Shown piece after piece: positions 10,677 to 56,226 of a stretch of 64,000 bases of DNA. Position 1 is the first letter of the stretch. Every line of letters starts with the position of its first letter. The position numbers and the translations under genes are program-made. The stretch is from Candidatus Aminicenantes bacterium (GTDB taxonomy: Bacteria; Acidobacteriota; Aminicenantia; UBA2199), in assembly GCA_018262835.1 (NCBI GenBank), contig JADFDP010000001.1, positions 32,081 through 96,080 of the forward strand. Direction: 5' to 3'. Under the pieces are notes generated by a model, which did no database searches, was not told the DNA's origin, and saw only the letters and a list, made by a program, of their open reading frames with translations.

Positions 10677-12656
10677 ATGAAGAAACCTTTTGCGCCGCAA
10701 CAAAACTACGAAAAGAGCCGCAAGCGGGTCGGCTATACTCCGCGCAATGAAACCAAGGCCGCAACCTATGCCAGACTGGGATTCAAATGCGGCCTGGAAG
10801 TGCACCAGCAGCTGCAGACCGAAAAAAAGCTGTTTTGCCACTGCCCGGCCGGCAGGTACCACAACCTTGAGGAATACGACGCCGAGATCGTCCGCCACAT
10901 GCGGCCGACCCTTTCCGAGCTGGGCGAATACGACGGCACGGCCCTGATGGAATTCAAGACCCGCAAGATTGTTATCTACCGGATCAAGAACGAGACTACC
11001 TGCACCTATGAAATAGACGACACGCCTCCTTTCCTGGTCAACCGCCAGGCCCTGGAGATCGCCATGGAGGTGGCGCTGCTGCTCAAGTGCAACATCGTCG
11101 GCGAGTTCCACATCACGCGCAAGCAGTACCTGGACGGCAGCATCCCCACCGGTTTTCAGCGCACCGGCATCCTGGGTATCGAAGGGGAGATCCCGCTGTG
11201 TCATAAAAAAATCCGGATCATCCAATTGAGCGTTGAAGAAGATGCCTGCCGGGAAATTTCCGATGTCGGCCACATGCGCATCTATTCCACCGACCGCCTG
11301 GGCATGCCCCTGATCGAGACCGTGACCTACCCCGAAATGCTGACCCCCGCCGAAGCCGCCGAAGCCGCCCAGTATATCCGCTTCCTGGCGCGCAGCACCG
11401 GCAAGGTGCGCACCGGCATCGGCGCCGCCCGCGAGGACGTCAATGTCAGCATCACGGGCGGCACGCGCGTGGAGATCAAGGGGGTGGCCCATATCGCCTG
11501 GATTCCCGAGCTGGTACACAACGAGGCCTTCCGCCAGAAAGCGCTGCTGGAGATCCGCGAGGAACTGCACCGGCGCGTCGGGGACGGCAAGGATTGGAAA
11601 ATTGATTCCAAAGAAGTGGAAGCCGACGTCCTGGGCTGCGATTTCCCCCCCATCCGGGACGCGCGAAAAAAGAAATTGCACCTGCTGGCCGTCAACCTGC
11701 CGGGATTCGGGGGACTCCTCTCCTTTTTCACCCAGCCCGGAAAAATGTTCGCCGACGAGATCGGCGACCGCCTGAAGGTCATCGCTTGCCTGGAGAGGCC
11801 CAACATGGTCCATTGCGAGCAGCCGGAAAAGACGCTGGGCGAGGACGCCTGCCATTGGCTGCGCAAGACTTTAAAAGCGGGTGAAGACGATGCCCAGCTG
11901 TTGTTCTGGGCTGCAGCCGACGACATCAAGACCGCCCTGGAAACCATCGAGGAGCGCTGCCGCCTGGCTTTCCAGGGCGTGCCCAACGAGACGCGGAAAG
12001 GGCTGGCCGACGGCCGCACCATTTTCGAGCGGGTTCTGCCCGGCCCGGACCGTATGTATCCCGACACCGACTCGGCCCCGATCCCGGTCGAGGATGACCT
12101 GATCGAGCGCGTCCGTTCCGGCCTTCCCCCCGAGATCCACTACCGGCTCGGCCAGTTCAAGGCCTGGGGCGTCCCGGAAGACACTTTCGCTTTCCTGCTA
12201 AAATACAACCTGGCTCCCTGGCTCGAAAAGATCAGTAGCGCTTTCGGCGTCGAAGCGCGTTTTGTCTCCGTGGTCCTGGGGCACGTCCTGAAAAATCTGA
12301 TGGGCAGGCAGCAGGGCGGCGCGGGTTTCAATTTCCAGCGGCTCTACGACCTGTTCGGTTTCGTCCGCGAGCAGAAGCTGGACCATGAGATCATCAAGGT
12401 CATGCTGCCGGTGGTGTTCCAGCATCCAAACATGGATTTCGAGTCGGTGCTGACCACGGTAAACTTCAAGCGGCTAGGGCGCGAGGAGATCCTGGCCCCG
12501 CTGCCCATCCTGAAGGAAAAATTCAAGAAGACCGGCACATCCAAGGACCCTGCCGCTGCCACGCGCTGGATTGTAGGCAATTTGCGGAAACTGGCGCTGG
12601 GCAACATGCCCATGCGTGAAGTCACGGCGCAGCTGGCCAAGGGGAAAAAATCATGA
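10677..12656 (+). CDS. gatE: Glu-tRNA(Gln) amidotransferase subunit E (archaeal-type GatE)
   Basis: GatB/E N-terminal motif GLEVHQQLQTEKKLFCHCP. Its 659-aa length with an inserted domain is typical of GatE rather than the ~480-aa GatB. ATGA overlap with the gatD start. Confidence 0.85.
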   Translation: MKKPFAPQQNYEKSRKRVGYTPRNETKAATYARLGFKCGLEVHQQLQTEKKLFCHCPAGRYHNLEEYDAEIVRHMRPTLSELGEYDGTALMEFKTRKIVIYRIKNETTCTYEIDDTPPFLVNRQALEIAMEVALLLKCNIVGEFHITRKQYLDGSIPTGFQRTGILGIEGEIPLCHKKIRIIQLSVEEDACREISDVGHMRIYSTDRLGMPLIETVTYPEMLTPAEAAEAAQYIRFLARSTGKVRTGIGAAREDVNVSITGGTRVEIKGVAHIAWIPELVHNEAFRQKALLEIREELHRRVGDGKDWKIDSKEVEADVLGCDFPPIRDARKKKLHLLAVNLPGFGGLLSFFTQPGKMFADEIGDRLKVIACLERPNMVHCEQPEKTLGEDACHWLRKTLKAGEDDAQLLFWAAADDIKTALETIEERCRLAFQGVPNETRKGLADGRTIFERVLPGPDRMYPDTDSAPIPVEDDLIERVRSGLPPEIHYRLGQFKAWGVPEDTFAFLLKYNLAPWLEKISSAFGVEARFVSVVLGHVLKNLMGRQQGGAGFNFQRLYDLFGFVREQKLDHEIIKVMLPVVFQHPNMDFESVLTTVNFKRLGREEILAPLPILKEKFKKTGTSKDPAAATRWIVGNLRKLALGNMPMREVTAQLAKGKKS

Positions 12657-14035
12657 GCGACCTGTTCAAGGGCTACAAGGGGCCGGCGCTGGAGCTGCTG
12701 AAAAAATTCAACATCCGCGTCTGGAGCGACACCGCGGTCAAGACCACGCGCGGCGATTTCAAGGGCATCGTGCTGCCGCGCTCGGAAAACGACGACGACA
12801 CGCATATCGTGCTCAAGCTGATCACGGGTTACAACGTGGGCATCGCCGTCGAGAGCGTCCTGGACATCCAGGAGTTCGGCTACAAGGAAGCCCATTACAA
12901 GATCCCGGAAAAGCAGTTCCCGTTCTCCAAGGAAAAGAAGAACGTCAAGCTGCTGGGCACGGGCGGGACCATCGCCTCACGCCTCGACTACCGCACCGGC
13001 GCCGTTATCCCCGCCTTCTCGCCCGGCGAGCTCTACGGCGCCGTCCCCGAGCTGGCCGATATCTGCAACCTCGCAACCGAGAAGCTCTTCGCCGTGTTCA
13101 GCGAGAACATGGGCCCCGAGCAGTACAAGGGGTTGGCCAAGGCCATCGGCGAGGAGATCCGCAAGGGCACCGACGGCATCGTCATCGGCCACGGCACCGA
13201 CACCATGCACCACACCGCGGGCATCCTCTCCTTCATGGTGCAGAATTCGCCGGTGCCCATCGTCATGGTCGGCTCGCAGCGCTCCTCGGACCGGCCGTCT
13301 TCGGACGCGGCCCTGAACCTGATGCACGCCACCAAGACCGCCGCCGATTCCGACATCGCCGAGATCATGGTCTGCATGTTCGGCCCCACCTCGGATGAGT
13401 ACGGCCTGCTGCACCGCGGCACGCGCGTGCGCAAGATGCATTCTTCCTACCGCTCCACCTTCCGCACCATCGGCGACATCCCCCTGGCCATGGTCGACCG
13501 CAAGAAGATCACGCCGCTGCGCCAGGACTACAAGCGCCGGCGCAACGACCGCAACGTGGACATCCTGCCGTTCTTCGAGGAGAAGGTGGGGATGCTCTAT
13601 TACTACCCCAACATGCAGCCCGACATGATCGATGCCATGGTCGACCACGGCTACCGGGGGATCGTCATCGCCGGCACCGGGCTGGGCCACGTCAACAAGC
13701 CGCTCTACCCGGCCATCGTGCGCGCGGCGGAAAAGGGCGTGACCATCTATATGACCGTGCAGACGCTCTGGGGCTACGTGCACATGTTCGTCTACGACAC
13801 CGGCCGCGACCTGATGGCCAAGGGCATCATCCCGGCCGAGAACATGCTCCCGGAAGTGGCCTACGTCAAGCTGGCCTGGGCATTAGGCCAAACAACGGAT
13901 CTCGACAAAGTGAAACAATTGATGCTGACCCCCATCGCTGGCGAGATCACCGAGCGCGAGCCTTATAATGGATACTTAATATTCCAGGGCGGCATCCCCG
14001 AGGTCGAAGAGTTTATCCGGAAATTTCACAAGTAA
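12653..14035 (+). CDS. gatD: Glu-tRNA(Gln) amidotransferase subunit D (archaeal-type GatD, asparaginase-like)
   Basis: GatD-specific N-terminal domain (GIVLPRSENDDDTHIVLKLITGYNVGI). Type-I asparaginase motifs follow (LLGTGGTIASRLDYRTG, GHGTDTM). Translationally coupled to gatE. Confidence 0.85.
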   Translation: MSDLFKGYKGPALELLKKFNIRVWSDTAVKTTRGDFKGIVLPRSENDDDTHIVLKLITGYNVGIAVESVLDIQEFGYKEAHYKIPEKQFPFSKEKKNVKLLGTGGTIASRLDYRTGAVIPAFSPGELYGAVPELADICNLATEKLFAVFSENMGPEQYKGLAKAIGEEIRKGTDGIVIGHGTDTMHHTAGILSFMVQNSPVPIVMVGSQRSSDRPSSDAALNLMHATKTAADSDIAEIMVCMFGPTSDEYGLLHRGTRVRKMHSSYRSTFRTIGDIPLAMVDRKKITPLRQDYKRRRNDRNVDILPFFEEKVGMLYYYPNMQPDMIDAMVDHGYRGIVIAGTGLGHVNKPLYPAIVRAAEKGVTIYMTVQTLWGYVHMFVYDTGRDLMAKGIIPAENMLPEVAYVKLAWALGQTTDLDKVKQLMLTPIAGEITEREPYNGYLIFQGGIPEVEEFIRKFHK

Positions 14036-16880: not shown

Positions 16881-16953
16881 TTTTGAATTTCCTCTTTTCT
16901 CCATTGTGTCTGGGGCGGTTGCCGTGTCGTGATGACCCCCAGCGCCCCTCAGC

Positions 16954-17052
16954 GCCGGCGAGATCACCGAGCGTGAGCCCTATAATGGATATTTAATATT
17001 CCAGGGCGGCATCCCAGAGGTCGAAGAGTTCATCCGCAAGTTCCATAAATAG
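16954..17052 (+). pseudogene. detached copy of the last 99 nt of gatD (remnant B)
   Basis: Encodes AGEITEREPYNGYLIFQGGIPEVEEFIRKFHK*, identical in amino acids to gatD 13937-14035. There are 12 nucleotide differences, all silent (including TAA to TAG). In-frame stops lie directly upstream, so it is not part of a gene. Confidence 0.9.
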
Positions 17053-17084
17053 TCATCATTCACGGGTATGGTGACAAGGTATTT

Positions 17085-17351
17085 TCAAGGCTTGCGCTTT
17101 TTCTTTCTTCCACCCGTTCCCGGCGCCGTCCGGCCCGGGCCGAAGTATTTTTCGCTGCGGTAGCGCAGCCAGACCCGCAGCACCTGGGGGACTTTTTCCT
17201 TTTGCTCACTGGAAAGGCTTTCGTAAAGCTTCATGGCCATGTCGCGGTGGGTGCGGCAGGCATGGTTGCGGTGCGCGTCCCAGTAGGAACGGGCCAGCCG
17301 GATCAGGCGGCAGGCTTCCTTGACGGGGTCGGGCAAAACGCTTCGTGACAT
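17085..17351 (-). CDS. small hypothetical protein with basic C-terminal tail
   Basis: 88 aa from the ATG at 17351 (MSRSVLPDPVKEACRLIRLARSYW...GGRKKKRKP). G+C-rich, unlike its flanks. No family recognised. Confidence 0.4.
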   Translation of the reverse strand: MSRSVLPDPVKEACRLIRLARSYWDAHRNHACRTHRDMAMKLYESLSSEQKEKVPQVLRVWLRYRSEKYFGPGRTAPGTGGRKKKRKP

Positions 17352-17428
17352 GGGAGAATGGTAACACATATGGAAGAATTGGGGCCAGGGCCAATGTGGT
17401 GCAAAGAGGGATTTCTGGCGCATGAAGC

Positions 17429-17552
17429 CCTACGTCAAGCTCCCCGGCGTGGAGCACGTCGACGGCACCGCCATCAACATCGAGATCGAGGACTTCATCA
17501 GCTCGGAGGCGGCCAACCCGGGGTCGAGAAGTTCAGCAGAAAGTTTCATAAG
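17429..17552 (+). pseudogene. degraded, frameshifted copy of the gatD 3' region (remnant C)
   Basis: 13-nt identity CCTACGTCAAGCT with gatD 13860-13872. After deletions and a frame change, GGGQPGVEKFSRKFHK matches GatD QGGIPEVEEFIRKFHK. Confidence 0.6.
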
Positions 17553-18788: not shown

Positions 18789-18854
18789 AACGGATATTTG
18801 ATCTTCCCGGGCGGCGTTCCCGAGGTTGAGAAGCTCATCCGTAAGTTCCACAAG
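18789..18854 (+). pseudogene. detached copy of the gatD 3' end (remnant D)
   Basis: Encodes NGYLIFPGGVPEVEKLIRKFHK, versus GatD NGYLIFQGGIPEVEEFIRKFHK. It starts 2 nt after the propeller-gene stop. The original stop codon is lost. Confidence 0.75.
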
Positions 18855-23271: not shown

Positions 23272-24180
23272 ATGATGAACTTCATTGGCGAGATCGCGGC
23301 GTTGCTCACTTCGGTTTGCTGGGCGTTCAACTCGGTGGTCTTTACCCGGGCCGGGAAGCGGGTGGGGGCGGTCACCGTCAACTATATGCGCTTGTGGATC
23401 GCGGTCCCGGCCCTGCTCCTGATCCACTGGCTGCTTTTCACCACCCCGTTCCCTTTTGCCATCGAGCCGCGCCGCTTTCTTTACCTGGGGGTTTCGGGCC
23501 TGATCGGGTTCGTCATCGGCGACGGCATGCTTTTTGAATCCTTCCTGCTGATCGGTCCCCGCCTGGCCATGCTATTGGCGCTGCTCGTTCCGGTCTGCAG
23601 CACCCTGCTGGCCTGGGTGTTCCTGGGAGAGAAATTGCTGGTCCTGGAGATCGCCAGCATGCTCGTGACCATCGGCGGCATTGCCTGGGTGGTGGCGGAG
23701 AAGACGGTTCCCGGCGACATGCCGATTTCCGGGAAGCCGCGGAAATATTGCCTGGGGATCCTGTTGGCCGTGGGCGGAGCCGCGGGCCAGGCGACAGGTC
23801 TTCTGTTCTCAAAGCTGGGATTGGCGGGCGGCTATTCCGCTGTTTCCGCCACCCTCGTCCGCGTCAGCGTCTCCGCCCTGGCCCTGGCGGCCCTCGGTCT
23901 CTTCCAGGGAAAAATCCATGCCCATCTGGCCAAAATGAAGGATAAAAAAGCGCTGCTGGAGATCGCCGCCGGAGCGTTGACCGGGCCGGCGTTGGGGGTC
24001 GTTCTGTCATTGGTGGCCATCGCCCACGCCCATATCGGCGTCGCCTCCACCCTGATGTCTCTCACCCCGGTGATTTTGCTGCCAGTGTCCCATATTCTTT
24101 TCAAGGAAAGGATCACTTCCCGGGCGATCGTCGGTACGCTGGTCGCCCTGCTCGGGGTGGTCATGCTCTTCCTGATCTGA
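23272..24180 (+). CDS. EamA/DMT-superfamily transporter
   Basis: 302 aa with ten hydrophobic helices in a two-fold EamA-like arrangement. Confidence 0.75.
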   Translation: MMNFIGEIAALLTSVCWAFNSVVFTRAGKRVGAVTVNYMRLWIAVPALLLIHWLLFTTPFPFAIEPRRFLYLGVSGLIGFVIGDGMLFESFLLIGPRLAMLLALLVPVCSTLLAWVFLGEKLLVLEIASMLVTIGGIAWVVAEKTVPGDMPISGKPRKYCLGILLAVGGAAGQATGLLFSKLGLAGGYSAVSATLVRVSVSALALAALGLFQGKIHAHLAKMKDKKALLEIAAGALTGPALGVVLSLVAIAHAHIGVASTLMSLTPVILLPVSHILFKERITSRAIVGTLVALLGVVMLFLI

Positions 24181-24299
24181 CGCTCCTCTCGTGCCGGAAA
24201 AGGCTGCCGCCGGATGGCGGATCAGGGCAGGAAAGGGAATTATCCATGAGATTTCCCGGGACATTTTCTATTTTAAAGACAGGAAACAAGGAGGAAACT

Positions 24300-24764
24300 G
24301 TGAGCAAAAAAAATCATGGCGCGTTAGGGTTCGTTCTTGCTTTGATCATCGTTGGCGGGTTGTCGGCGATTTCCCTGCCGGCGCAATCCCTGGAGCTCTG
24401 CTGCATCGCCGGCACGTACGAGGGGTTCCAGGTCAACTATGCCAAGCCGAACTGCCCGGCCCCGGTGAAGGAAAAGTTCACCATGGTCATCAGACAAATG
24501 AAACCGTGCTCAGCGTCCATCGGGGGGACGATCGTCGATTCCTCCGGGACGGTGAGCAACTGGACCGGGACCCTGCGCCGGGGGCTGCGTCACTGCTGCC
24601 TGCTCGAGGGCACTACTATCGTCATTCCCGGCGTCAACCCGGTGAAATTCAAGGGCACGATATGCCAGCGGCACGGCAAATGGCAGATCAAGGGCACTTG
24701 GGAAGAGATCGGCGTTACCGATCCCTGCCGCGGCAGCGGCACCTGGCAGGCTGCCCAGATCTAG
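24300..24764 (+). CDS. small secreted cysteine-rich protein
   Basis: GTG 24300 lies 5 nt after AAGGAGG. Signal peptide ...LSAISLPAQS. 9 Cys in the mature part. No family recognised. Confidence 0.45.
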   Translation: MSKKNHGALGFVLALIIVGGLSAISLPAQSLELCCIAGTYEGFQVNYAKPNCPAPVKEKFTMVIRQMKPCSASIGGTIVDSSGTVSNWTGTLRRGLRHCCLLEGTTIVIPGVNPVKFKGTICQRHGKWQIKGTWEEIGVTDPCRGSGTWQAAQI

Positions 24765-25016
24765 TTTTCGGACACGCGTTCGATCTTGCCGCTTTGGCGG
24801 CAGCTGCGAAAAATGATTCCGGGCATCTGATCGGCAAAAAAAAACGTATCCGGAATGGGATGCTCGGCGGATTGCGGCGGGCCGGTGCTGTATTATATTA
24901 GTGCGCTTCACCGACCACTACGCCCAAGGTGGGGAATATTGGGGACGGTGCCTGACTCTGTGACATTGGCGGCATGGGGACGGATCGGGGAACTTCGTCT
25001 TCTCCCAATTTTTTGC

Positions 25017-25045
25017 TTGACTTCGCCGCCATACATTCATAAAAT
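25017..25045 (+). promoter_or_regulatory. sigma-70-type promoter (TTGACT-N17-TAAAAT) of the yjcH-actP operon
   Basis: TTGACT at 25017-25022, a 17-nt spacer, then TAAAAT at 25040-25045. This leaves a ~135-nt leader before ATG 25180. Confidence 0.5.
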
Positions 25046-25179
25046 TGGCGTATGCTGAAAATCGGGTTTCCCGCACGGTTATCCTGGTTGCGCATGGAAG
25101 TCTGATAAGAATAGGCGGCGGATTCTTGGTCGCGGTTTAACGATCGTCGTTCGATAAAAATTTCGCTAGGAGGCGCTCT

Positions 25180-25461
25180 ATGCTGCATGGACCGGCGGTG
25201 GAAATCGGAAAAGACCATTCGATCCCAAAGAAAACGAAGCTGGGGATCATCATGTTTGCCTGTTACATGCTGGTGTATGCGGGATTCGTGTTCATCGGCA
25301 TGTCATTTCCCCAGGCTATGGGCAACCGGATCATTTTCGGGCTGAATCTGGCCTTCCTGTACGGCATGGGGCTGATCATCCTGGCCGCCGTCATGGGGCT
25401 GATCTACAACCACTTCTGCACCCGTTATGAAAACGAACTGAACCGGAGGGAACCCTCATGA
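25180..25461 (+). CDS. yjcH: DUF485 (YjcH-like) inner-membrane protein
   Basis: 93 aa with two TM helices. 4-nt overlap with the actP start, the conserved yjcH-actP pairing. Confidence 0.75.
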   Translation: MLHGPAVEIGKDHSIPKKTKLGIIMFACYMLVYAGFVFIGMSFPQAMGNRIIFGLNLAFLYGMGLIILAAVMGLIYNHFCTRYENELNRREPS

Positions 25462-27365
25462 TCTACCAGGTATCGGCGACGGCGATCGTCATTTTTCTTA
25501 TCTTTGTCTTTTCGGTCCTGGGCCTCTCGTTCTACTTTGCCCGCAAGGCAAAATCGGCGAGCGGCTATTATGCGGCCGGCGGCCAGATCCACTGGGCGGT
25601 GAACGGCATCGCCTTCGCCGGCGACTACCTCTCCGCTGCCTCCTTCCTGGGCATCTGCGGCATGATCGCCTTCTATGGCTTCGACGGGTTTCTTTACTCG
25701 ATCGGTTACCTGGCGGGCTGGGTGGTGGCCCTTTTTGTCGTCGCCGAGCCCTTGAAGCGCATGGGAAAATATACGTTCGCCGATGCCCTCGACTCCAAGT
25801 TCAACTCGCGCGGCATCAAGCTGACCGCGGCCATCAGTACCCTGGTGGTCTCGATCTTCTACCTGATCCCGCAGATGGTCGGCGCCGGCGCGCTGGTCAC
25901 CCCGCTCCTCGGGCTGCCCCATTGGGTCGGTGTTCTGATCGTCGGATCGGTCGTCATCCTGATCGTGGCCACGGCCGGCATGACCTCCACCACCTACGTG
26001 CAGTTCATCAAGGGCGCCTTGCTGATCTGTTTCTCGCTCGCCGTGGTCGTCTTCCTGCTCAACCGTGGCCTGAAGCGCACCCCCAGCGAGGATTATCATC
26101 GCTTCGTCACCATGCCGGTCACCGTCGCAAACGGGGAAGTTACCGCCGTGGCCGATTCCTCTTTCCGGGTGACGGGCCAGCACCGGGAAAAGGACCTGAC
26201 GTTCGTCAAGCTGGAAAAGAACGGGATCGGCTCCTGGTGGAAACTCAATGCCGACGCAGCCGCGCCTTTCCTGGAGGAGGCGCTGTCGGTCGTCGTCCAA
26301 AAAGACGGGATGGCCCTCTACAACGGCGAGCCCAAGGAAGCGCGCCGGTTCTTCCAGGTAGGCCATCTGAACAAAATTATCGTGGACGGGAAAGAGGTCG
26401 AGGCGACCGGCGCCGTCGGCCCATTTGAGTTCATTCGGCGCATCGAGGATTCCGAGATCGTCCGCTTTGCCAAGTCCGTGTTCACCTACCAGGACGCAAG
26501 CGTCACCCTCTATCACCAGGTCGTCACGCCGGGTAAGGAGATCATGAAACCTGGTCTGTATTACAAGCTCGACAAGGGCTCCAGCTTCTGGTCGCGCCTT
26601 GATTTTCTCTCGCTCATGCTGGCCTTGTTCCTGGGGACTTCCGCTCTCCCCCATATTCTCATTCGTTATTACACGGTCCCCAGCCAACGCGCGGCCCGGA
26701 AATCCACGATCGTAGCCATTGTCGCCATCGGCTTTTTCTATATCCTGACCCTCTACATGGGGACGGGGGCCATGATCAGCGGCTGCCTTGACGTTCAGGA
26801 CTCGAACATGTCGGCGCCGCTGCTGGCGAAAACGTTTGGCGTCACCCTGTTTTCGATCATTTCCGCCATCGCCTTCGCCACGATCCTGGGAACGGTCAGC
26901 GGCCTGATCGTCGCCGCCTCGGGCGCCGTCGCCCACGACCTGATGGACAAATACATGAAAATCGAAATGACCGATCACGCCAAGGTGCGGGCCGGCAGGC
27001 TGGCTGCGGTCGCCGTTGGCCTCGTGGCCATTATCCTGGGGATCATCTTCGAAGGGCAGAACGTCAACTTCCTGGTCGGCTTGGCCTTCGCTATCGCCGC
27101 ATCGGCCAACCTGCCGGCCATCCTGATGCTCCTGTTCTGGAAAAGAACGACGGCCAGGGGCATCTCCTGGGCGATCAGCGTCGGCATGGCGGCATCGTTG
27201 CTGATCATCCTCCTCTCTCCCACCATGTTCGAGATTTATGGTCTTTCGCCCGCGGCGGCGCCGATCCCGTTGCGCAACCCCGGCATCATCTCCATCCCAC
27301 TCGGATTCCTCACGCTGATCATAGCTTCCCTGCTGACAAAAAAGAAAAGTCCCGAAAAGGCTTAG
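25458..27365 (+). CDS. actP: cation/acetate symporter ActP (SSF family) with a large inserted soluble domain
   Basis: SSF motifs (GGQIHWAVNGIAFAGDYLSAASFLG, GTSALPHILIRYYTV). Follows yjcH. 635 aa, with about 155 extra residues around aa 203-358. Confidence 0.85.
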   Translation: MIYQVSATAIVIFLIFVFSVLGLSFYFARKAKSASGYYAAGGQIHWAVNGIAFAGDYLSAASFLGICGMIAFYGFDGFLYSIGYLAGWVVALFVVAEPLKRMGKYTFADALDSKFNSRGIKLTAAISTLVVSIFYLIPQMVGAGALVTPLLGLPHWVGVLIVGSVVILIVATAGMTSTTYVQFIKGALLICFSLAVVVFLLNRGLKRTPSEDYHRFVTMPVTVANGEVTAVADSSFRVTGQHREKDLTFVKLEKNGIGSWWKLNADAAAPFLEEALSVVVQKDGMALYNGEPKEARRFFQVGHLNKIIVDGKEVEATGAVGPFEFIRRIEDSEIVRFAKSVFTYQDASVTLYHQVVTPGKEIMKPGLYYKLDKGSSFWSRLDFLSLMLALFLGTSALPHILIRYYTVPSQRAARKSTIVAIVAIGFFYILTLYMGTGAMISGCLDVQDSNMSAPLLAKTFGVTLFSIISAIAFATILGTVSGLIVAASGAVAHDLMDKYMKIEMTDHAKVRAGRLAAVAVGLVAIILGIIFEGQNVNFLVGLAFAIAASANLPAILMLLFWKRTTARGISWAISVGMAASLLIILLSPTMFEIYGLSPAAAPIPLRNPGIISIPLGFLTLIIASLLTKKKSPEKA

Positions 27366-27374
27366 GAGGATGCG

Positions 27375-28676
27375 ATGACCAAGACAAGCATTATTCTTCT
27401 CTTTCTGATCGGATTGCTCTGGCTGCCGCTGTCAGCCGAGGAGGAGACGGCGAAATTCGGGATCTCTTTTTCCGGTTTCGTGAAAAGCGACTTCTTCTAT
27501 GATTCGCGGCAGACGGTTTCCATCCGCGAAGGCCATTTCCTGTTGTATCCGGCCGCAGAGGACCTGGACGCCAACGGCGAGGACATCAACGCCGACTCCA
27601 GCTTCAATTTTATTTCCATCCAGACCCGCCTGACCGGGGCGATCAGCGCTCCCGACGCTTTCGGCGCCAAAGTGAAGGGGGTGGTCGAAGCCGATTTCTT
27701 CGGCAACGAGAACGCCGCCTTCGTCGACGCCAACGGGTTCCGCTTGCGCCATGCCTATGCCCAGTTGTCGTGGAAAAAAACCCAGCTGCTGTTCGGGCAG
27801 TATTGGCACCCCATGTTCGTCCCGGCCTGTTATTCCGAGGTGATCTCGTTCAATACCGGGTCCCCCATGCAGCCTTTTTCTCGCAACCCGCAACTCCGGT
27901 TCACCCGGCAGCTGGGCCGCTTCAGCCTGATCGGGGTAATGGCCGCGCAGCGGGACTTCACCAGCCCGGGCGGTTCGAACGTTCAGCGGAATGCGGCCCT
28001 GCCCGAGTTCCATCTCCAGCTCCAGTACCAGAACCGGCCGCAACCCGGTGGCAATGGATTCATGGCCGGCATCGGCGCCGGCTACAAGTCCATACAGCCC
28101 CTCCTGTTCAGCGAAGCGGCCGCAGGAAAATTTGCCAGTGACGAAATGGTGTCCGATTTTTCTTTGACCGCCTTCGCCAAGTTCAGCGCCTCGGCTTTTA
28201 CGCTGAAGATCCAGGGCGTATACGGCGGCAACCTCTTTGACCTGCTCATGCTCGGCGGCTATGCCGTGCACGAGGTGACCGATGCATCGACCAACCGGGT
28301 CACCTATACGGCCTTGAAGACGATGTCGGCCTGGACTGAATTCATGACCCAGGGGAAGAAGGTGCAATTCGGGTTGTGGGGCGGCTACACGCAAAACCTG
28401 GGCGCCGGCGACCCCATCGCCTTTTATTCCGACCGACCCGGCGGCACGCTGGCCACCGTCCGCGGCGCCAACATTAAAAGCGTCATGCGCGTCTCCCCGC
28501 GGATCGTTTTCCCCGCTGGAAAATTCAGCCTGGCCTTCGAAGCGGAATATACCCGTGCCGCTTACGCCGACCGGGATGAAACGGGAACCCTCTTCCGTGA
28601 CGGGTCCGGCGTCATCACCCGCACCCGGGCCGAGGACAATCTCCGTCTCCTCGCCGCCGCTGTTTTGAGGTTTTGA
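27375..28676 (+). CDS. putative porin (outer-membrane beta-barrel)
   Basis: Signal peptide present. Beta-strand periodicity. C-terminal ...LLAAAVLRF with a terminal Phe. 9 nt after the actP stop. Confidence 0.55.
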   Translation: MTKTSIILLFLIGLLWLPLSAEEETAKFGISFSGFVKSDFFYDSRQTVSIREGHFLLYPAAEDLDANGEDINADSSFNFISIQTRLTGAISAPDAFGAKVKGVVEADFFGNENAAFVDANGFRLRHAYAQLSWKKTQLLFGQYWHPMFVPACYSEVISFNTGSPMQPFSRNPQLRFTRQLGRFSLIGVMAAQRDFTSPGGSNVQRNAALPEFHLQLQYQNRPQPGGNGFMAGIGAGYKSIQPLLFSEAAAGKFASDEMVSDFSLTAFAKFSASAFTLKIQGVYGGNLFDLLMLGGYAVHEVTDASTNRVTYTALKTMSAWTEFMTQGKKVQFGLWGGYTQNLGAGDPIAFYSDRPGGTLATVRGANIKSVMRVSPRIVFPAGKFSLAFEAEYTRAAYADRDETGTLFRDGSGVITRTRAEDNLRLLAAAVLRF

Positions 28677-28701
28677 ATCCGGAAGTATCCGCAGCGCCGC
28701 G

Positions 28702-29481
28702 ATGAAAATCGGTATTCTCAGCGACATTCACGAAGATGCGGAAAGATTGGAAGCGGCCCTGCGCCTGTTGGAAAAGAGGAACTGCGACGAGCTCATCTGC
28801 CTCGGCGATATCATCGGTTTCGATGTGCGCCATTACCGTTACCTGGCGAAGCGTGATGCCTCCCGTTGCGTGGCCATGGTACGCGCCAACTGCCGCCTGG
28901 TGCTGGCCGGCAACCACGATCTCTTTGCCATCCGCAAACCGCCCAGGGCGAATGGCTGTTTCGTTTTTCCAGAAAACTGGTACCAGTTGGACTTCAGCGA
29001 ACGGAAAAAGCTGGGGGAGGACAGGATCTGGCTTTTCGAGCACCAGGAGCTTTCCCCGCTGCTGAGCGCCGCGGATCGCGACTACATCGATTCCCTGCCC
29101 GAATTCCTCATGGCGGATTTCGCCGGGACGCGCATGCTCTTCTCCCATGAAATATTCCCCGACCCGTCCGGTTCTTTGACCTGGAGGCCGAAAAACCATT
29201 GGGATTTCCGCCAGCACTTTCACTTCATGCAGGAGAATCGCTGCCGCCTCGGGGTCTCCGGGCACCTGCATCCGGACGGCATCGGCATCGTTCACGATAC
29301 GAAATTCCACTTTTCCCACTTCCGGGCTCATGCGATTCCCCTGGATCTGGTACAATATGTATGTCCTTGTATGGCCAACTCGGCGAGCCGCAACGGCTTC
29401 TTGATACTGGACACGGTCCGCATGACCATGGAAGCGGTGGCGCTGAAATCGAAACCATACCGGGTTGAAGGCTTCCGATGA
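28702..29481 (+). CDS. calcineurin-like metallophosphoesterase
   Basis: Motifs ILSDIHED, CLGDIIG and LAGNHD. Confidence 0.75.
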   Translation: MKIGILSDIHEDAERLEAALRLLEKRNCDELICLGDIIGFDVRHYRYLAKRDASRCVAMVRANCRLVLAGNHDLFAIRKPPRANGCFVFPENWYQLDFSERKKLGEDRIWLFEHQELSPLLSAADRDYIDSLPEFLMADFAGTRMLFSHEIFPDPSGSLTWRPKNHWDFRQHFHFMQENRCRLGVSGHLHPDGIGIVHDTKFHFSHFRAHAIPLDLVQYVCPCMANSASRNGFLILDTVRMTMEAVALKSKPYRVEGFR

Positions 29482-32021
29482 AAAAGCGACGGACGCGGAT
29501 CGATGCCCGAAAGTTTTTCCTGACCATCATTTTACCCACGGCATTGACCATCGGGGTTTTTATCCTGCTGATCTTCCGCTTTCTCGTCCCCTATTTTGAA
29601 CATAACCTCCTGGTCCAGAAAAAAGGAATGATCCGTGAACTGGTCAATGTCGCGGTCAGCACCGCGGCCAAATTCCGGCTCGAGGCCGAGCGGGGCATCA
29701 TGACCGAGGCCGAAGCGCGGGCGCGCGCCGTCGCCCAGATCCAGGGCATGCGCTATGGCGTGGGCAACAAGGATTATTTCTGGATCACCGATCTGCTGCC
29801 GCGGATGATCATGCATCCATACCGCAGCGATTTGAACGGGCGGGACCTGAGCGGCTTCAGCGACCCTGAAGGGAAAAAACTGTTCGTGGAGATGGTGCGC
29901 GTCGTGCGCGCGAAAAAATCCGGCTATGTCGATTACATATGGCAATGGATGGACGAGAGCGAGCGCATCGTCCCCAAAATATCCTATGTGCGGGAATTCG
30001 CCCCCTGGGGGTGGATCATCGGCACTGGCATCTATATTGAGGACATTCGCCTGGAGATCGCCGCCATCAAGCAGCGCCTGGTCGTCATTTCGCTGCTGAT
30101 TTTCGCCTTGCTGGCCCTGCTGCTGACCTTTATCGTCCGCCAGAACCTGAAGGCGGAAAGGAAGAGATCGGAAGCCGAAGCCGACCTGTTCCACTCGCGG
30201 GAAAAATACAAGGCGCTGGTCGAGGCGGCGACCGAAGGGACCTGGATGATCCTGGAGGGAAGGAGCGTCTTCACAAACCGCAAGCTCCTGGAATTTTTCC
30301 CCGAGCTGGGTGTTGGCCCGATCAGCGACGACTTAAGGGAAATCATCCCGCCGGAGCGGGCGGAGGACCGCCGGAAAGTCGCCGATTTCAAGAATAGTGA
30401 ATCCACCTCCCTGCAGTTGGAAACCCGGTTGAAAAGCGCGTCGGGCCAGTCGGTCGACGTGCTGATCTCGATTTCGAAAATCGCTCTGGCGGAGAAGAAA
30501 GGGTATATCTTGATCCTCAAGGAACTGGGTGATGGCGGCGATCCGCAGGCGCGCGAACGGCGGGAGGATGAATTCCGTTCCGAGATCGGGCTGATCCTGA
30601 TGAACCTTCATCGACTGGCGGGTGACGCCAGCCGGGAGCCGGTCTTCTGCGCGGCCACCCTCCCCATCCAGGACGCCGTCGCCTTGATGAACGGGCATCG
30701 CCGTGACGCGTTGGTCGTCCGGTCGGAGACGGGAGCCGCTATCGGCATCTTCACCGACTCCGATCTCCGCCGCCGGGTCGTCGGTGAAGGAGTCCCTGCC
30801 TCAGCCCAGGTGTCCGTCGTCATGAGCGCGCCGTTGATCGGGATCGCCGCTACCGCCCCTCTGTCCGCCGCCTGGCGGCTGATGGAACGCCACGACATCG
30901 GCCATGTCGTCATCCGGGGCGCGGCGGGCGCCGTCGGCGGGATACTGGCGCGGGGCGATATCGAGCAGATGATCATTGCCGGCCAGCCAGCGGTAGCCGT
31001 CCCGGCCGCCGCCGAAGTTTCCATCGATGCCCTGCGCCAGCGTTTCCAGCGGCTGCCGCATTTAGTCGCGGGATTGGCGGGAAGCGGCGCGCGCACGGAA
31101 TTGATCACCGGGGCGACCACCGCAGTCGCCGATGAAACCGTCACGTCCCTGGCCAGGGTGGTTGAGACGGAACTCGGGCCGGCGCCGCTCCCCTTCGTTT
31201 TTATCGTGCTCGGCAGTGAGGGGCGTGCGGAACAGACCCTGCTCACCGACCAGGACAACGCCCTGATCTTCGCCGATTCCGACGTGGCCGGCGCCGCGGC
31301 CGCCCGCGCCTATTTCCAGGCATTCGGCGAACGGCTGAACCGGCTCCTGGCGCAAGTCGGCTACGCCCTGTGTCCGGGTCAGGTCATGGCCGGGAACAGC
31401 GTGTGGAACCAGCCTCTTTCCACCTGGAAGCGCTACTTCAGCGAATGGATCGAAACCCCCGACCCCAAAAATCTTCTGGAGATCAGCACATTCTTCGACC
31501 TGCGGGCCGTCTTCGGCGCCGCGGGCCTGGCAGAGGAACTTGGCGACCAAATTCGCCTGGACCTGAAGAATCACCCCGCCTTCTTTGGCCATCTCGCCAG
31601 GGTTTGCCGGGACTATAAAATCCCCCTGGGGATCTTCGGGAAAATCCACACGGAAACGAGCGACGAGCATGCCAACCGGGTCAACATCAAGAGCCCCATT
31701 CGCGTGATCGTAAACCTGGTCCGGCTCTATACCATGGCTCACCAGGTCCGGGAAACCAATACCATCGGCCGCATGAGGGGATTATACGAGAAAGGCGTTT
31801 TTTCCCGATCTTTCTTCGCGGACCTCCGCCAGGACTTTGATTTCCTGATGCGCCTTCAATTCCAAAGCCAGATCAAGACGTATCGGCAGGGGAGACCACT
31901 GGACCACTATATCGACTTGGACGACCTCTCTACCATCGAAGTGGAAACGATCAAGACGATCTTTTCCCAGATCGGTTCCTTCCAGTCCCGCCTGAAGCAC
32001 GAGTTCTCCATACCCGAATAA
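29478..32021 (+). CDS. membrane sensor: Cache - TM - PAS - CBS pair - DUF294-type nucleotidyltransferase
   Basis: Cache-like periplasmic part (KDYFWITDLLPRMIMHPY...GWIIGTGIYIEDI) between two TM helices. PAS-like segment. CBS pair (VVRSETGAAIGIFTDSDL, VIRGAAGAVGGILARGDI). NTase motif LGSEGRAEQTLLTDQDNALIF, then a DUF294_C-like helical end. ATGA overlap with the upstream gene. Confidence 0.7.
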   Translation: MKKRRTRIDARKFFLTIILPTALTIGVFILLIFRFLVPYFEHNLLVQKKGMIRELVNVAVSTAAKFRLEAERGIMTEAEARARAVAQIQGMRYGVGNKDYFWITDLLPRMIMHPYRSDLNGRDLSGFSDPEGKKLFVEMVRVVRAKKSGYVDYIWQWMDESERIVPKISYVREFAPWGWIIGTGIYIEDIRLEIAAIKQRLVVISLLIFALLALLLTFIVRQNLKAERKRSEAEADLFHSREKYKALVEAATEGTWMILEGRSVFTNRKLLEFFPELGVGPISDDLREIIPPERAEDRRKVADFKNSESTSLQLETRLKSASGQSVDVLISISKIALAEKKGYILILKELGDGGDPQARERREDEFRSEIGLILMNLHRLAGDASREPVFCAATLPIQDAVALMNGHRRDALVVRSETGAAIGIFTDSDLRRRVVGEGVPASAQVSVVMSAPLIGIAATAPLSAAWRLMERHDIGHVVIRGAAGAVGGILARGDIEQMIIAGQPAVAVPAAAEVSIDALRQRFQRLPHLVAGLAGSGARTELITGATTAVADETVTSLARVVETELGPAPLPFVFIVLGSEGRAEQTLLTDQDNALIFADSDVAGAAAARAYFQAFGERLNRLLAQVGYALCPGQVMAGNSVWNQPLSTWKRYFSEWIETPDPKNLLEISTFFDLRAVFGAAGLAEELGDQIRLDLKNHPAFFGHLARVCRDYKIPLGIFGKIHTETSDEHANRVNIKSPIRVIVNLVRLYTMAHQVRETNTIGRMRGLYEKGVFSRSFFADLRQDFDFLMRLQFQSQIKTYRQGRPLDHYIDLDDLSTIEVETIKTIFSQIGSFQSRLKHEFSIPE

Positions 32022-32220
32022 TCCTTTTCTCGAGCCATGGGTTCTCGGAACCGCCCGGATGGTCTTTTAGGCCAAGAATTCTGGCTTGTTTGTTTTTTCA
32101 GATAAAATTATGGTGGGCGGTACGATCGGCATCATTTACCGAAGAAAAATTATTTGCGTTTGACCATGTTCTGGAAAAAACAGGCCGCGGCCATTTGTTC
32201 GTGCGCTACAGAACCGGCAG

Positions 32221-32301
32221 CTAGCCGAGGATGGCGTCCTTGCAAGCCTTGGCGACGCGGAACTTGACGATGCGCTTGGTCGGGATCCTGATCGCTTCGC
32301 C
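32221..32301 (-). pseudogene. C-terminal fragment of an HU/IHF-family DNA-binding protein gene
   Basis: The minus strand reads ...TGEAIRIPTKRIVKFRVAKACKDAILG*, the C-terminal arm/strand region of HU/IHF. The N-terminal ~60 aa are missing. It abuts the DMT remnant head-to-head. Confidence 0.65.
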
Positions 32302-32302
32302 G

Positions 32303-32470
32303 GTGGCCATCGCCCATGCCCATATCGGCGTCGCTTCGACGCTGATGTCGCTCACCCCCGTGCTGCTGCTGCCGGTGTCTTATTTCCTCTTTAAAGAAAA
32401 AATCACTGCCCGGGCAATGATTGGAACAGTGGCTGCCTTGTTGGGGGTTATCCTGCTCTTCTTGATTTGA
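32303..32470 (+). pseudogene. detached copy of the last 168 nt of the EamA/DMT transporter gene
   Basis: Encodes VAIAHAHIGVASTLMSLTPVLLLPVSYFLFKEKITARAMIGTVAALLGVILLFLI*. The gene at 24013-24180 encodes VAIAHAHIGVASTLMSLTPVILLPVSHILFKERITSRAIVGTLVALLGVVMLFLI*. Same orientation and same length. Confidence 0.85.
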
Positions 32471-32531
32471 TTCGCCGCTCTCGCAAAGGAAGAATGGTAG
32501 CGGGAGCGTGAATACAATTCACGGCCATTGG

Positions 32532-32560
32532 TTGCAATTTCAAAAAAAGTTACCTAAAAT
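32532..32560 (+). promoter_or_regulatory. sigma-70-type promoter (TTGCAA-N17-TAAAAT)
   Basis: TTGCAA at 32532-32537, a 17-nt spacer, then TAAAAT at 32555-32560. The palindrome CGTGAAT-ACA-ATTCACG (32508-32524) lies just upstream. Confidence 0.5.
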
Positions 32561-32634
32561 CGATTCATGGGAAAAATGGGTTTTCCAATAGGTTTCCATA
32601 AATCCACGAATTTTCCGCTGGAGGGGTGAGAGTC

Positions 32635-33726
32635 ATGATGAATGCTTGTGTCGCTGTTTCTCTCCTGCTCCTGGGTCTCTTTCCGCAGAGCCTGTTTTCC
32701 GACCGGACCGCGGCGGAGCCGGGTGCGAAGCGGCTCGCTTTTGTTTCCAATCTGATGAGCCACACGCTTTCAGCCGTCGATCTGGACGGCCAGAGCGGCT
32801 TCCGAAATTTCAATGTCGGGCGCTACCCCATCTTTTCCTCCCTTCACCCTCACGACCCGACCAAGCTGATTGTCGCGCTCCATAACTATGATCGTCTCGA
32901 TGACCAGGACGGCATCGTCTTGTTCGACATCTGGAAGGAAAAGGTTGTCAAAAAAGTCCCCATCCCGGGTGTGGGAATGCCCTCAGGTTTTGTCTATGAC
33001 GGGAAGCGCAACAGGATTTATGTGGCCGATGAAAACCTGAACCGGGTGTTTGTCCTGGACGGCATGACACTGGATATCATCTTCCAGCTTCCCGCGGGTC
33101 TCATCCCCGTGCACGTCGATATTTCTCCCGACGGCAAATGGCTGGCGGTCACGAATCGGAAAAGCGCGGATCTCTATGTGTACGACCTGGACAACATCCT
33201 CAATGACGCCAAGGACGGCATATGCAGCATTCACCTGGGCCCCGCTCCGGGTTGCCTGTGGAACCCGGATGAAGCGGGCGTCACGGCAACCAGCCATCCC
33301 ATCGATGTGAAGTTCGGGAATGAAGCGAATGTCTGTTACGTCACGGACTACAACACCAAGGAACTCCTCTTCGTGGATATCCTGAAGCGGGAGGTGGTCG
33401 CCCGGGTGGCCTTCAGGGATATGCCGTTCGATTTTTCGCTGAATCGCGAAAAGACTCTTGCTTATGTCTGCCAGGTCGGCGGCGAATCCGTCACGGTTGT
33501 CGATCTGGGCAAGAGGAAGATCCTCACCGAGATTCCCGGTTTGCTCTCAAATCCCATCCATTGCGTGCTCGATGAAGAGCGCAATCAACTGATCGTGGGA
33601 TGCTGGGGGGGCGCCCGCACCGGGGGGATTTACGTTATCGATCTTGAGACCTATCGGATTCAGAAACACTTCGTCCTGGAGGGGGCTGCGGCTTCCATCG
33701 GCATCAGCATCGCCCGGGAGCCCTGA
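32635..33726 (+). CDS. secreted YVTN/YncE-like beta-propeller repeat protein
   Basis: Signal peptide present. Repeated motifs of the form '...N.V.V.D..' (LAFVSNLMSHTLSAVDL, IYVADENLNRVFVLD, LAVTNRKSADLYVYD, CYVTDYNTKELLFVD, AYVCQVGGESVTVVD). ATG 32635 lies 8 nt after GGAGGGG. Confidence 0.6.
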   Translation: MMNACVAVSLLLLGLFPQSLFSDRTAAEPGAKRLAFVSNLMSHTLSAVDLDGQSGFRNFNVGRYPIFSSLHPHDPTKLIVALHNYDRLDDQDGIVLFDIWKEKVVKKVPIPGVGMPSGFVYDGKRNRIYVADENLNRVFVLDGMTLDIIFQLPAGLIPVHVDISPDGKWLAVTNRKSADLYVYDLDNILNDAKDGICSIHLGPAPGCLWNPDEAGVTATSHPIDVKFGNEANVCYVTDYNTKELLFVDILKREVVARVAFRDMPFDFSLNREKTLAYVCQVGGESVTVVDLGKRKILTEIPGLLSNPIHCVLDEERNQLIVGCWGGARTGGIYVIDLETYRIQKHFVLEGAAASIGISIAREP

Positions 33727-33818
33727 ATCGGCCGTTTTCTCCAAGCCATAATGCATGGGTCTTGAATTGTCATGGGAAAGATCGGGGGTGCTTTTTTTGT
33801 GGCCACCTGCAACAAATA

Positions 33819-33861
33819 GAAAAAAAGAGGCGCGGTCCGGATCCCAGATCCGCCGCGCCTC
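33819..33861 (-). terminator. rho-independent terminator (minus strand)
   Basis: GAGGCGCGG...CCGCGCCTC stem, followed on the minus strand by T7. 24 nt downstream of the 33885-34124 gene. Confidence 0.65.
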
Positions 33862-56157: not shown

Positions 56158-56226
56158 CGCTGTTGGCGGCAGAACATTCGTTTTTCGCTCAAGCAGCCCA
56201 TTTTGCGGCCATTTTTCAAACAATGA

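Follow-up and report, generated by a model that had tools for sequence, protein, structure and literature searches.

The 3′ end of an EamA/DMT transporter gene (DMT) occurs twice in the window, by which we mean the whole 64-kb stretch of DNA that was analysed, and our preferred reading, to which we assign a probability of roughly 55%, is that the second, orphan copy is the scar of an additive recombination between diverged haplotypes. A permuted 8,290-bp segment of one haplotype (D), closed at a microhomology, would have been added to a chromosome of the other (R) by a single crossover in the DMT 3′ end. On this reading dedicated mobile-element machinery was not involved; the recombination was an ordinary one, in which two versions of a variable part of the chromosome took part in an uncultured, Aminicenantes-like bacterium, and the locus is an instructive case of an already known kind of recombination scar.

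Two copies of a transporter gene end

The resident DMT gene (23272-24180, plus strand; 302 aa, Pfam EamA E = 1.3e-33) is intact but mosaic. Its last 168 nt (24013-24180, plus strand) recur in the same orientation at 32303-32470 (plus strand), as an earlier note on this DNA had described. The alignment and dN/dS calculation proposed in that note were carried out: the copies align without gaps and in frame, 131 of 168 nt (78%) and 45 of 55 amino acids are identical, both copies end in TGA, and the homology between them has a sharp upstream limit at 32302/32303. Searched against the window with tblastn, the DMT protein matched the orphan at E = 2.6e-22, and in a repeat search the pair (D1, spacing 8290) was one of just two direct-repeat families of at least 40 nt in the 64 kb. 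Differences between the copies are distributed 12/2/23 over the three codon positions, and the Nei-Gojobori method gave dN 0.114, dS 0.90 and omega 0.13. The signature of a once-functional gene end, which the note had read from the orphan, is borne out by this omega; with an omega of 0.13 and a dS of 0.9, the two gene ends are diverged functional alleles rather than the products of a recent duplication. The orphan is today most likely a relic without function.

Chromosomal neighbours at the edges of the block

Six-frame translation and a match to PF00216 (E = 3.4e-5, profile positions 65-89 of 90) identified the 3′ fragment of an HU/IHF-family gene at 32221-32304 on the minus strand. It comprises 27 codons and a stop (TGEAIRIPTKRIVKFRVAKACKDAILG), is cut at about codon 66 and is 89% identical in amino acids to the full 93-aa HU gene of the metagenome contig L024. 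This truncated gene, absent from the description in the earlier note, directly adjoins the orphan. Alignment of the window with contigs L024 and L029, and with the part of DMT that precedes 24013, revealed a 7-nt microhomology, GGTGGCC (32302-32308; 6/7 G+C), at the HU/DMT joint, and the motif occurs both in HU (..CGCCGGTGGCCGGGTTG) and in DMT (..CATTGGTGGCCATCGCC). The right boundary accordingly reads as an illegitimate joint, placed inside the truncated HU gene at these seven shared nucleotides. On the 3′ side of HU lies a spacer (32182-32220) with one hairpin arm (GGCCGCGGCC), covered by the alignment of L024 11582-11708 with window 32182-32308 (94.5%); in the D haplotype, the hairpin to which this arm belongs lies between the Cys-rich gene and HU.

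Comparison with relatives distinguished two haplotypes of this region. Haplotype D has the order DMT, Cys-rich gene, HU on the opposite strand and A2M, while haplotype R runs from an amidohydrolase gene through DMT and a short conserved flank to other genes. In three metagenome contigs (L024, L029 and L030) DMT, the Cys-rich gene and a full, oppositely oriented HU gene are contiguous, with about 100-130 nt between the latter two, and L024 10001-11486 aligned to window 23272-24762. The Cys-rich secreted protein gene of the window (24300-24764, plus strand, coordinates following the calls in other assemblies) is 86-90% identical in amino acids to its counterpart, which in these contigs stands between DMT and HU. 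Because the three carry this order contiguously, the ends of the block (DMT 3′ end, Cys-rich gene and HU 3′ fragment) are ordinary chromosomal neighbours of DMT. Since its ends are contiguous in sister lineages, the window insert is a circular permutation of a segment reaching from the DMT 3′ end and the Cys-rich gene to the HU 3′ end, with one novel closure joint, HU/DMT at GGTGGCC.

The gene order also bears on the idea that two DMT paralogues were once resident here and that a single deletion removed the 5′ parts of the second DMT and of a divergent HU gene. Deletion between divergent genes yields exactly a minus-strand 3′ fragment beside a plus-strand 3′ fragment, and microhomology joints are typical of deletions. 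Yet HU is convergent with and downstream of a single DMT, never divergent, in every relative with HU at the locus, including L028 and L036, which lack the Cys-rich gene and pass from DMT directly to the reversed HU. None of the loci compared has two DMT copies, and the reciprocal mosaic of the two copies described below would be left unexplained, which makes this account very improbable.

To the right of the orphan, a beta-propeller (YncE/NHL-like) gene assigned by Pfam and NCBIfam (32635-33726, plus strand) represents a separate indel, being absent in the syntenic relative L008. In this relative, which resembles an empty site, the amidohydrolase gene and DMT are followed by g34182..aaRS without the block, and homology to the window picks up again at 33853. 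The earlier note had proposed looking in relatives for DMT followed directly by the propeller gene; a syntenic locus without the block does exist in L008, but DMT followed by the propeller was seen in no relative, L008 having no propeller.

Most of the block consists of a monocarboxylate/acetate uptake and sensing module (24765-32181, plus strand), recognized by Pfam and NCBIfam matches. Its plus-strand genes encode a DUF485 protein (25180-25461), an SSF/ActP-MctC-like symporter (25458-27365), an unknown 433-aa protein (27375-28676), a metallophosphoesterase (28702-29481) and a Cache-CBS-DUF294 nucleotidyltransferase sensor (29478-32021), the closest database homologues of which are just 57% identical. 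The 433-aa protein, previously labelled a porin, matched no Pfam or NCBIfam family. The Cache and CBS domains named earlier for the sensor were found, and its nucleotidyltransferase part as DUF294, but the PAS domain was below the thresholds used, the score against one NCBIfam PAS-containing family being far under its cutoff. The host-like G+C reported for the block was confirmed. All three sister contigs that have both the Cys-rich gene and HU lack the module between them, and for this reason the block appears to be composite. A donor with the module in that position was not found among the Cys-rich homologues with genomic context, all of which either lacked it or came from near-identical strains of the window. 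Comparison of the module boundaries (24765-24870 with 32022-32225, and both with L024 and L029) yielded no repeats or relics, an A-run alone being common to them.

Ancestry of the two gene ends and a proposed origin

The present 3′ end of DMT differs in ancestry from the remainder of the gene, a conclusion supported by several comparisons of aligned alleles. From nt 1 to about 805 the resident gene is of R ancestry, and its final ~90 nt are of D ancestry: over nt 1-741 identity is 86% to haplotype R (L025/L007) and 79% to haplotype D (L024), and over the closing 168 nt identity to L024 reaches 90%. Of the final 87 positions 81 (93%) agree with L024, as do 26 of 30 in the post-stop flank, and the R types show the opposite trend. 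The breakpoint was located by maximum chi-square (p = 1e-5 to 2e-8), informative-site tests of the mosaic gave p = 0.002 to 2e-8, and a site-by-site comparison, R-like before and D-like after, would place the crossover at 24077-24089 (plus strand), that is at repeat positions 64-76. When the resident copy was bootstrapped, the nearest sequence was of D type in 99% of replicates for segment B and in only 3% for segment A. An early mosaic test with L001 and L002 alone had been suggestive and was contradicted by L008 and L012; the matter was settled only once the D-type loci had been found. Contigs of P0011, considered as a sign of strain-level variability 3′ of DMT, were dropped, being identical for at least 120 nt past the stop.

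The orphan appears to change ancestry in the reverse sense, D-like at 32303-32366 and R-like, as the original gene end, at 32380-32470, with the switch at 32367-32379. This is again repeat positions 64-76, which read ATTT..CC in the resident and CTGC..TT in the orphan. In its head (the first ~64 nt) the orphan agrees with D types at 57-59 of 64 positions (L030 40/43) and with most R types at 51-54, although the R-type L025 reaches 57/64, equal to L024; in its tail the R types score 66-72/87 and the D types 58-63/87. Bootstrapped by mean distance, the orphan was nearer D than R in 98% of replicates for segment A and in 0.2% for segment B; by nearest sequence the ~64-nt head was D-like in 67%. 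Bootstrap support for the reciprocal pattern of the two copies was 98%, 99% and 100%; the pattern is strong in the tails (99-100%) and moderate in the heads. The distal part of the orphan and ~18 nt past its stop are the sequence found after the DMT stop in most relatives, and this post-stop flank (32471-32488, plus strand; TTCGCCGC...) was recovered in alignments with L001, L007, L008, L009, L013 and L025 that run 7-22 nt beyond the stop. The view that the orphan contains the original DMT gene end is therefore supported. The orphan is probably a hybrid whose first ~64 nt are donor-like, an assignment based on about 64-75 nt.

In the origin we prefer, two direct copies of GGTGGCC in a D-type chromosome, one at DMT nt 739-745 and the other at about codon 66 of HU, would have recombined illegitimately. 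The product would have been an 8,290-bp circle or, equivalently, a tandem-duplication unit, whose sole novel joint linked the HU 3′ fragment to DMT nt 742; if the monocarboxylate module arrived separately, the circle would have measured ~0.9 kb. In a second step, suggested by the reciprocal mosaic, the 168-nt DMT segment would have crossed over once, at positions 64-76, with the resident R-type DMT, an integration of Campbell or 'ends-in' type. The resident gene would thereby have stayed intact with a D-type C-terminus, followed by the Cys-rich gene, while the HU fragment and a hybrid orphan with donor-like head and original tail and flank came to lie 8,290 nt downstream, so that genes were gained and the transporter kept. 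Campbell-type integration is known mainly from laboratory suicide vectors and from the integration of plasmids and prophages. The likeness lies in the direct duplication of the homology segment that flanks the insert (168-nt copies, 8,290 nt apart), in the target gene rebuilt as a hybrid, to which the second copy would probably be the reciprocal hybrid, and in the insert as a circular permutation of a contiguous donor segment. In contrast to those systems, the insert is an ordinary chromosome piece that carries no replication or transfer functions, the homology amounts to only 168 nt at 78% identity, and the circle is inferred. Against the single-crossover reading, no identical run across the inferred crossover is longer than ~13 nt, and overall identity is 78%, which makes a poor RecA substrate. 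The transfer of a non-replicating circle to another cell is also left without explanation by it.

The mosaic gene and the left junction were found in two further independent assemblies, with 99.6% identity over window 19652-26005 in L005 (JGI 3300027841) and 99.5% over 23713-24863 in L031 (JGI 3300004241). For the right junction (32302/3) an independent contig was not available, and searches for proteins identical to the chimeric ORF 32231-32470 or to the propeller (32635-33726) returned no match; the contig is, moreover, evidently metagenome-derived, all of which would suit an assembly or amplification chimera of two strains. However, k-mer graph chimeras need longer overlaps than the 7 nt at 32302-32308 and the ~13 nt at the crossover, the left part is seen at 99.5-99.6% identity in two other metagenomes, and the orphan tail and flank differ from the resident copy, so that the contig is no simple loop. 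We consider the structure almost certainly not artefactual.

The main rival, an import of the right flank by homology-facilitated illegitimate recombination (HFIR) with the block resident and the orphan foreign, is possible but unlikely. The ancestor would have carried amidohydrolase, DMT, Cys-rich gene, module, reversed HU, A2M, PBP1C and g34182 in this order, and the incoming DNA, from an L008-like lineage, would have consisted of the 3′ part of DMT, its flank, the propeller and g34182 onwards. Homologous pairing on the right in g34182..aaRS, with the left end joined illegitimately to HU at GGTGGCC, would have deleted A2M and PBP1C along with the 5′ part of HU, and the resident DMT would have become mosaic through a separate, ordinary homologous exchange. 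Such an ancestor is realistic because in L029 and L002 a region homologous to window 33796+ directly follows A2M-PBP1C, downstream of DMT; L036, too, reads amidohydrolase, DMT, reversed HU. The D-diagnostic positions 15, 50 and 74 (derived in the sampled D types) show the R state in both copies, and the protein sequence of the orphan agrees with R-type alleles along its entire length. The R-type L025 also looks mosaic, which marks the DMT 3′ end as a recombination hinge in the clade, and therefore the resident mosaic could stem from an unrelated exchange. On the other hand, HFIR requires a second independent exchange with its breakpoint inside the 168-nt overlap and in the same 13-nt interval as the switch in the orphan. 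The orphan head is also nearer to D than any sampled R type, with a mean identity to D types of 90.1% and at most 87.5% for the sampled R types (98% bootstrap).

For HFIR (de Vries & Wackernagel 2002; Prudhomme et al. 2002; Meier & Wackernagel 2003, all through the summary in PMC6382021), GC-rich microhomology joints of 3-10 bp are reported. The right boundary agrees with this in having one junction in homologous sequence and the other at a GC-rich microhomology, of 7 nt here. Classical HFIR nevertheless replaces or deletes recipient DNA without a duplicated gene end of reciprocal ancestry. It would also give DNA of one donor origin from the joint up to the homologous anchor; the orphan leans to D in its head and to R in its tail and flank, which on the basis of about 64 nt argues against one origin. 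Another comparison is offered by flexible genomic islands that are swapped through homologous recombination in the core genes beside them (Lopez-Perez et al. 2014, PMC4033161): they share with our locus a conserved gene end beside a variable region and a sharp, mostly synonymous change of ancestry at the boundary, but they are replacements that leave no duplicated gene end, while the event proposed here would be additive and leave a relic.

Recurrence at gatD and consequences

A second gene with a displaced 3′-end duplicate, gatD, had also been pointed out, and we found the same architecture there repeatedly. Its relics start at amino acids ~334, 365, 417, 428/429, 439 and 447 in the window, L032, L011, L038 and L007; the window has up to three of them in series, and L032 has, between gatD and its relic, an AbiE toxin-antitoxin pair together with a beta-lactamase gene. 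Because the boundaries of these recurring relics vary, in the window as well as in relatives, the process appears not to be site-specific, a conclusion drawn from gatD, as one DMT orphan alone is known.

Integrase-mediated genomic islands enter tRNA, tmRNA or protein-coding genes at the 3′ end, for which they bring a replacement. An element of this kind, with a tyrosine or serine recombinase located elsewhere or lost and an attP carrying a replacement DMT 3′ end, would account for the architecture, in which a substitute 3′ end keeps the target intact and the displaced end forms the distal direct repeat, and for its recurrence at gatD with serial relics. Our Pfam scan for recombinase and transposase domains took in every plus-strand gene of the block, every minus-strand ORF in it of at least ~100 aa and, beyond it, selected larger ORFs between 1602 and 39369; none was found in the block or in its flanks on either strand within ~10 kb. 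An Rfam gathering scan of the window for RNA families returned a tRNA at 44323-44395 alone. The distal boundary is no element-type terminus but lies inside a truncated housekeeping-type HU gene, the neighbour of DMT in sister lineages. The copies lack an extended identical core at the crossover, as their longest exact runs (17 and 14 nt) both lie outside it, the gatD relics start at too many codons for a fixed att site, and the G+C is host-like. An integrative island is thus extremely improbable here, and a reading of the block as a cassette or mobile element with its own machinery is not supported, as the block has no recombinase and its ends are the usual neighbourhood of DMT in sister lineages.

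A bolder idea, which we hold to be doubtful, is that conserved gene 3′ ends such as those of gatD and DMT serve in Aminicenantes-like genomes as recombinase-independent 'homology att sites', at which a cassette flanked by a gene end and its relic would be excised, through RecA-type recombination of the two repeats, as a circle with one copy of the gene end and re-integrated at the same gene of another genome. Were this true, integron-like serial cassette arrays could arise without an integrase, and the DMT case would represent the birth of a cassette, its microhomology closure joint still present in the truncated HU gene.

For genome scans, a displaced 3′-end duplicate alone is not evidence for an integrative element; the DNA adjoining the relic, the variability of relic boundaries and the reciprocal ancestry of the copies tell a recombination scar from an att site. 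Read as we propose, the locus would be a nucleotide-resolution record of a gene gain of ~8 kb in an uncultured bacterium without mobile-element machinery, the route being one microhomology joint and one exchange within a conserved gene end. The gained genes would include a monocarboxylate uptake and sensing module, and the gene at the point of entry would have remained unbroken. If the pattern is general, for which gatD is a hint, relics of gene ends could serve as dated footprints by which additive gene transfer is traced in lineages that only metagenomes have revealed.

A duplicated DMT gene end and its HU joint

The last 168 nt of the EamA/DMT gene (23272-24180, Pfam EamA match) align without gaps to an orphan copy at 32303-32470, with 131/168 nt and 45/55 amino acids identical and a TGA stop closing both. 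This bears out the repeat described in the earlier note, and the alignment of 24013-24180 with 32303-32470 that it proposed gave 12/2/23 differences over the three codon positions, an omega of 0.13 and a dS of 0.90 (Nei-Gojobori). The window has only one other family of long direct repeats, the orphan match reaches E 2.6e-22 (tblastn) and similarity to DMT ends abruptly upstream of 32303. Thus the two copies are diverged, once-functional alleles, neither a recent copy nor a chance match.

Directly left of the orphan lies a fragment that the same description had overlooked. The minus strand at 32221-32304 encodes TGEAIRIPTKRIVKFRVAKACKDAILG*, which is the last third of a protein of the HU/IHF family (Pfam PF00216, positions 65-89 of the 90 in the profile, E 3.4e-5). 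The HU and DMT fragments meet in GGTGGCC (32302-32308), a heptamer that intact HU genes (..CGCCGGTGGCCGGGTTG..) and DMT (..CATTGGTGGCCATCGCC..) both contain. The joint bears the signature of illegitimate, microhomology-mediated joining.

Two haplotypes of the DMT locus in relatives

Hundreds of homologous proteins are 70-87% identical to the DMT protein, the named ones from Candidatus Aminicenantes or Acidobacteriota MAGs. The DMT contexts among relatives split into two groups, D and R. In the D contigs L024, L029 and L030, DMT is followed by the Cys-rich gene, a full HU gene in reverse orientation (93 aa), A2M and PBP1C, and in L028 and L036 by the reversed HU with nothing between. Given this order, and since window 23272-24762 aligns to L024 10001-11486 and window 32182-32308 to L024 11582-11708 (94.5%), the pieces at the two ends of the block between the copies (DMT 3' end, Cys-rich gene and HU 3' fragment) lie next to one another on the chromosome in sister lineages. 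The D contigs lack the 7.4-kb monocarboxylate module (24765-32181) at this position, and a database search returned no homologue of its sensor above 57% identity.

In the R contigs (L001/L007, L002, L008, L009, L013, L025, L032 and L038) DMT is followed by a conserved flank of about 20 nt (T[AG]ATTCGCCGC..) and then by various genes. The orphan stop is followed by an R-type flank and the resident stop by a D-type one that shares 26/30 nt with L024. The comparison of related loci suggested earlier did yield a block-free locus, L008, whose synteny with the window extends to either side (amidohydrolase, DMT, g34182, pilin-like genes and, further on, a reversed aaRS gene), but the beta-propeller gene is also missing there. 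This gene is a separate indel (window 32489-33852 versus L008 5130-5653), 525 nt of unrelated sequence standing at its position in L008. The DMT genes of L001 (DATKZA010000053.1) and L002 (JBDRQC010000004.1) are 82-85% identical to that of the window; the two records are titled as 'Patescibacteria group' and 'Chrysiogenia' MAGs, yet they have local gene content in common with contigs whose proteins are labelled Aminicenantes or Acidobacteriota, and are likely mis-binned or mislabelled.

Several non-coding features were also recorded. An intergenic element of about 70 nt, TTGCAATTTCAA..TAAAAT..GGGAAAA..GGTTTTCC, is conserved at window 32532-32601, L008 1467-1521, L010 7230-7299 and L011 5675-5744, with unrelated genes in the various genomes lying some 40 nt downstream of it; within it a sigma-70-like promoter match (TTGCAA-17-TAAAAT) precedes a short palindrome, and it may be a promoter and operator common to one regulon. 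A second short stretch (window 56224-56284) is 81-86% identical to regions just downstream of DMT in L001 (1067-1127) and L007 (11077-11137) and to one in L010 (6886-6921). Furthermore, the window carries a 44-nt inverted repeat, 73% complementary (48988-49031 and 51317-51360, arms 2,285 nt apart), and a single minus-strand tRNA gene (44323-44395), the one Rfam match at gathering level, located where G+C falls locally to 48% (44-45 kb).

A probable reciprocal mosaic and a proposed route

Over nt 1-741 the resident gene is 83-86% identical to R types versus 77-79% to D types, whereas its last 87 nt match D types at 76-81/87 and R types at 59-72/87. Informative-site tests gave p = 0.002 to 2e-8 for this mosaic, and its best breakpoint, gene nt ~816-859, was narrowed to repeat positions 64-76 by site-by-site inspection. 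In the orphan the pattern runs the other way: over the tail (78-165) it agrees with R types at 66-72/87, against 58-63/87 for D types, and over the head (0-63) with D types at 57-59/64 (L030, 40/43), against 51-54/64 for most R types, with L025 the exception at 57/64. The mean identity of the orphan head to D types is 90.1%, while the maximum D-R identity is 87.5%. In bootstraps over sites the orphan head was on average closer to D than to R in 98%; the nearest sequence was D in 67% for the orphan head, 3% for the resident head, 99% for the resident tail and 0% for the orphan tail. Both copies appear to switch affinity within one 13-nt interval, TGCTGCC[A/G]GTGTC, with the caveat that both carry the R state at D-diagnostic positions 15, 50 and 74. 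This mosaic disfavours two DMT paralogues followed by one deletion, as do the HU orientation in all relatives and the lack of a second DMT copy in the fetched loci. A chimeric assembly is also unlikely, because overlaps of 7 and 13 nt are too short to seed graph chimeras and the same left structure occurs in two other metagenomes at 99.5-99.6% identity.

From the observed permutation and joint and the probably reciprocal mosaic we infer, as the simplest path and with a probability of about 0.55, a two-step Campbell-type route (single-crossover insertion-duplication). Two direct GGTGGCC heptamers of a D-type chromosome, located at DMT nt 739-745 and within HU, would have recombined illegitimately into a circle or tandem-duplication unit with a single novel joint, HU 3' fragment to DMT nt 742. 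One crossover between the unit's 168-nt DMT segment and an R-type resident DMT would then have integrated the whole unit. This route would account for all the features observed, namely the repeat spacing of 8,290 nt, an in-frame gene restored with a D-type C-terminus and followed by the Cys-rich gene, and, at the far end, the HU fragment and a hybrid orphan before the original flank. The monocarboxylate module, whose boundaries carry no repeat, may have travelled within the unit or entered separately.

Homology-facilitated illegitimate recombination (HFIR) is a realistic alternative, in which a fragment resembling L008, with its anchor in the g34182 region, would have joined illegitimately to HU of a D-type ancestor, deleting the HU 5' part, A2M and PBP1C. 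The g34182 region directly follows PBP1C in L029 and L002, L036 has the order amidohydrolase, DMT, reversed HU, and joints of 3-10-bp microhomology are typical of HFIR (PMC6382021). However, HFIR requires an R-type orphan head and a further, independent exchange at just the point where the orphan switches; we regard it as rather unlikely and weight the Campbell-type route above it.

Recurrence at gene ends and its meaning

The intact gatD-like gene (12653-14035) is followed by a serial array of 3'-end relics at 16946-17051 (32 aa, 100% identical in amino acids and 88% in nucleotides), 18789-18854 and possibly 17508-17552, bracketing low-G+C cassettes (41-50% at 14-19 kb; zf-HC2 anti-sigma-like, TonB_C and PD40 genes). 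Relics also occur in L032 (7558-7938, 127 aa, beyond an AbiEi/AbiEii toxin-antitoxin pair and a beta-lactamase), L010/L011 (L011 8370-8656, about 96 aa, frameshifted), again in L011 (10733-10831, 33 aa), in L038 (3028-3156, 129 nt, 43 aa; right flank homologous to window 17052-17366, M16 peptidases on the left) and in L007 (2584-2628, 45 nt, 15 aa). Their 5' boundaries vary case by case, which fits homology-anchored and illegitimate recombination at hypervariable-region borders, not a fixed att site. Hence, of the recurrent mechanism claimed in the earlier note, the recurrence is real, in the window and in relatives, but it does not reflect a dedicated mechanism. The variable boundaries also disfavour a site-specific island at the DMT locus, as do domain scans of the block and flanks that found no recombinase, a boundary falling in a host gene and a crossover without a core repeat.

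The gatD-like gene belongs to an archaeal-type pair (10677-14035), GatE-like (GatB_N) and GatD (GatD_N, Asparaginase), in an otherwise bacterial, Aminicenantes-like context; the pair is kept at 92-97% amino acid identity in L025, L028 and L032. In addition, the DMT 3' end of R-type L025 (10742-10909) is patchy: it is R-like except at repeat positions ~90-117, where it is D/I-like. This suggests that the DMT 3' end is a recurrent recombination hinge in the clade.

The DMT structure behaves as insertion-duplication (Campbell) integration does in the laboratory, has an illegitimate joint in common with HFIR, and has the same setting as the flexible genomic islands that are exchanged via flanking core genes (PMC4033161). 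Its likeness to the integrase islands found at gene 3' ends is one of outline only, as it lacks their defining features. A reading in which self-propagating cassettes use gene ends as attachment sites, with no recombinase involved, is quite improbable. The locus is a clear natural example of an already known type of event, and it shows that displaced gene-end duplicates are not necessarily marks of mobile elements.
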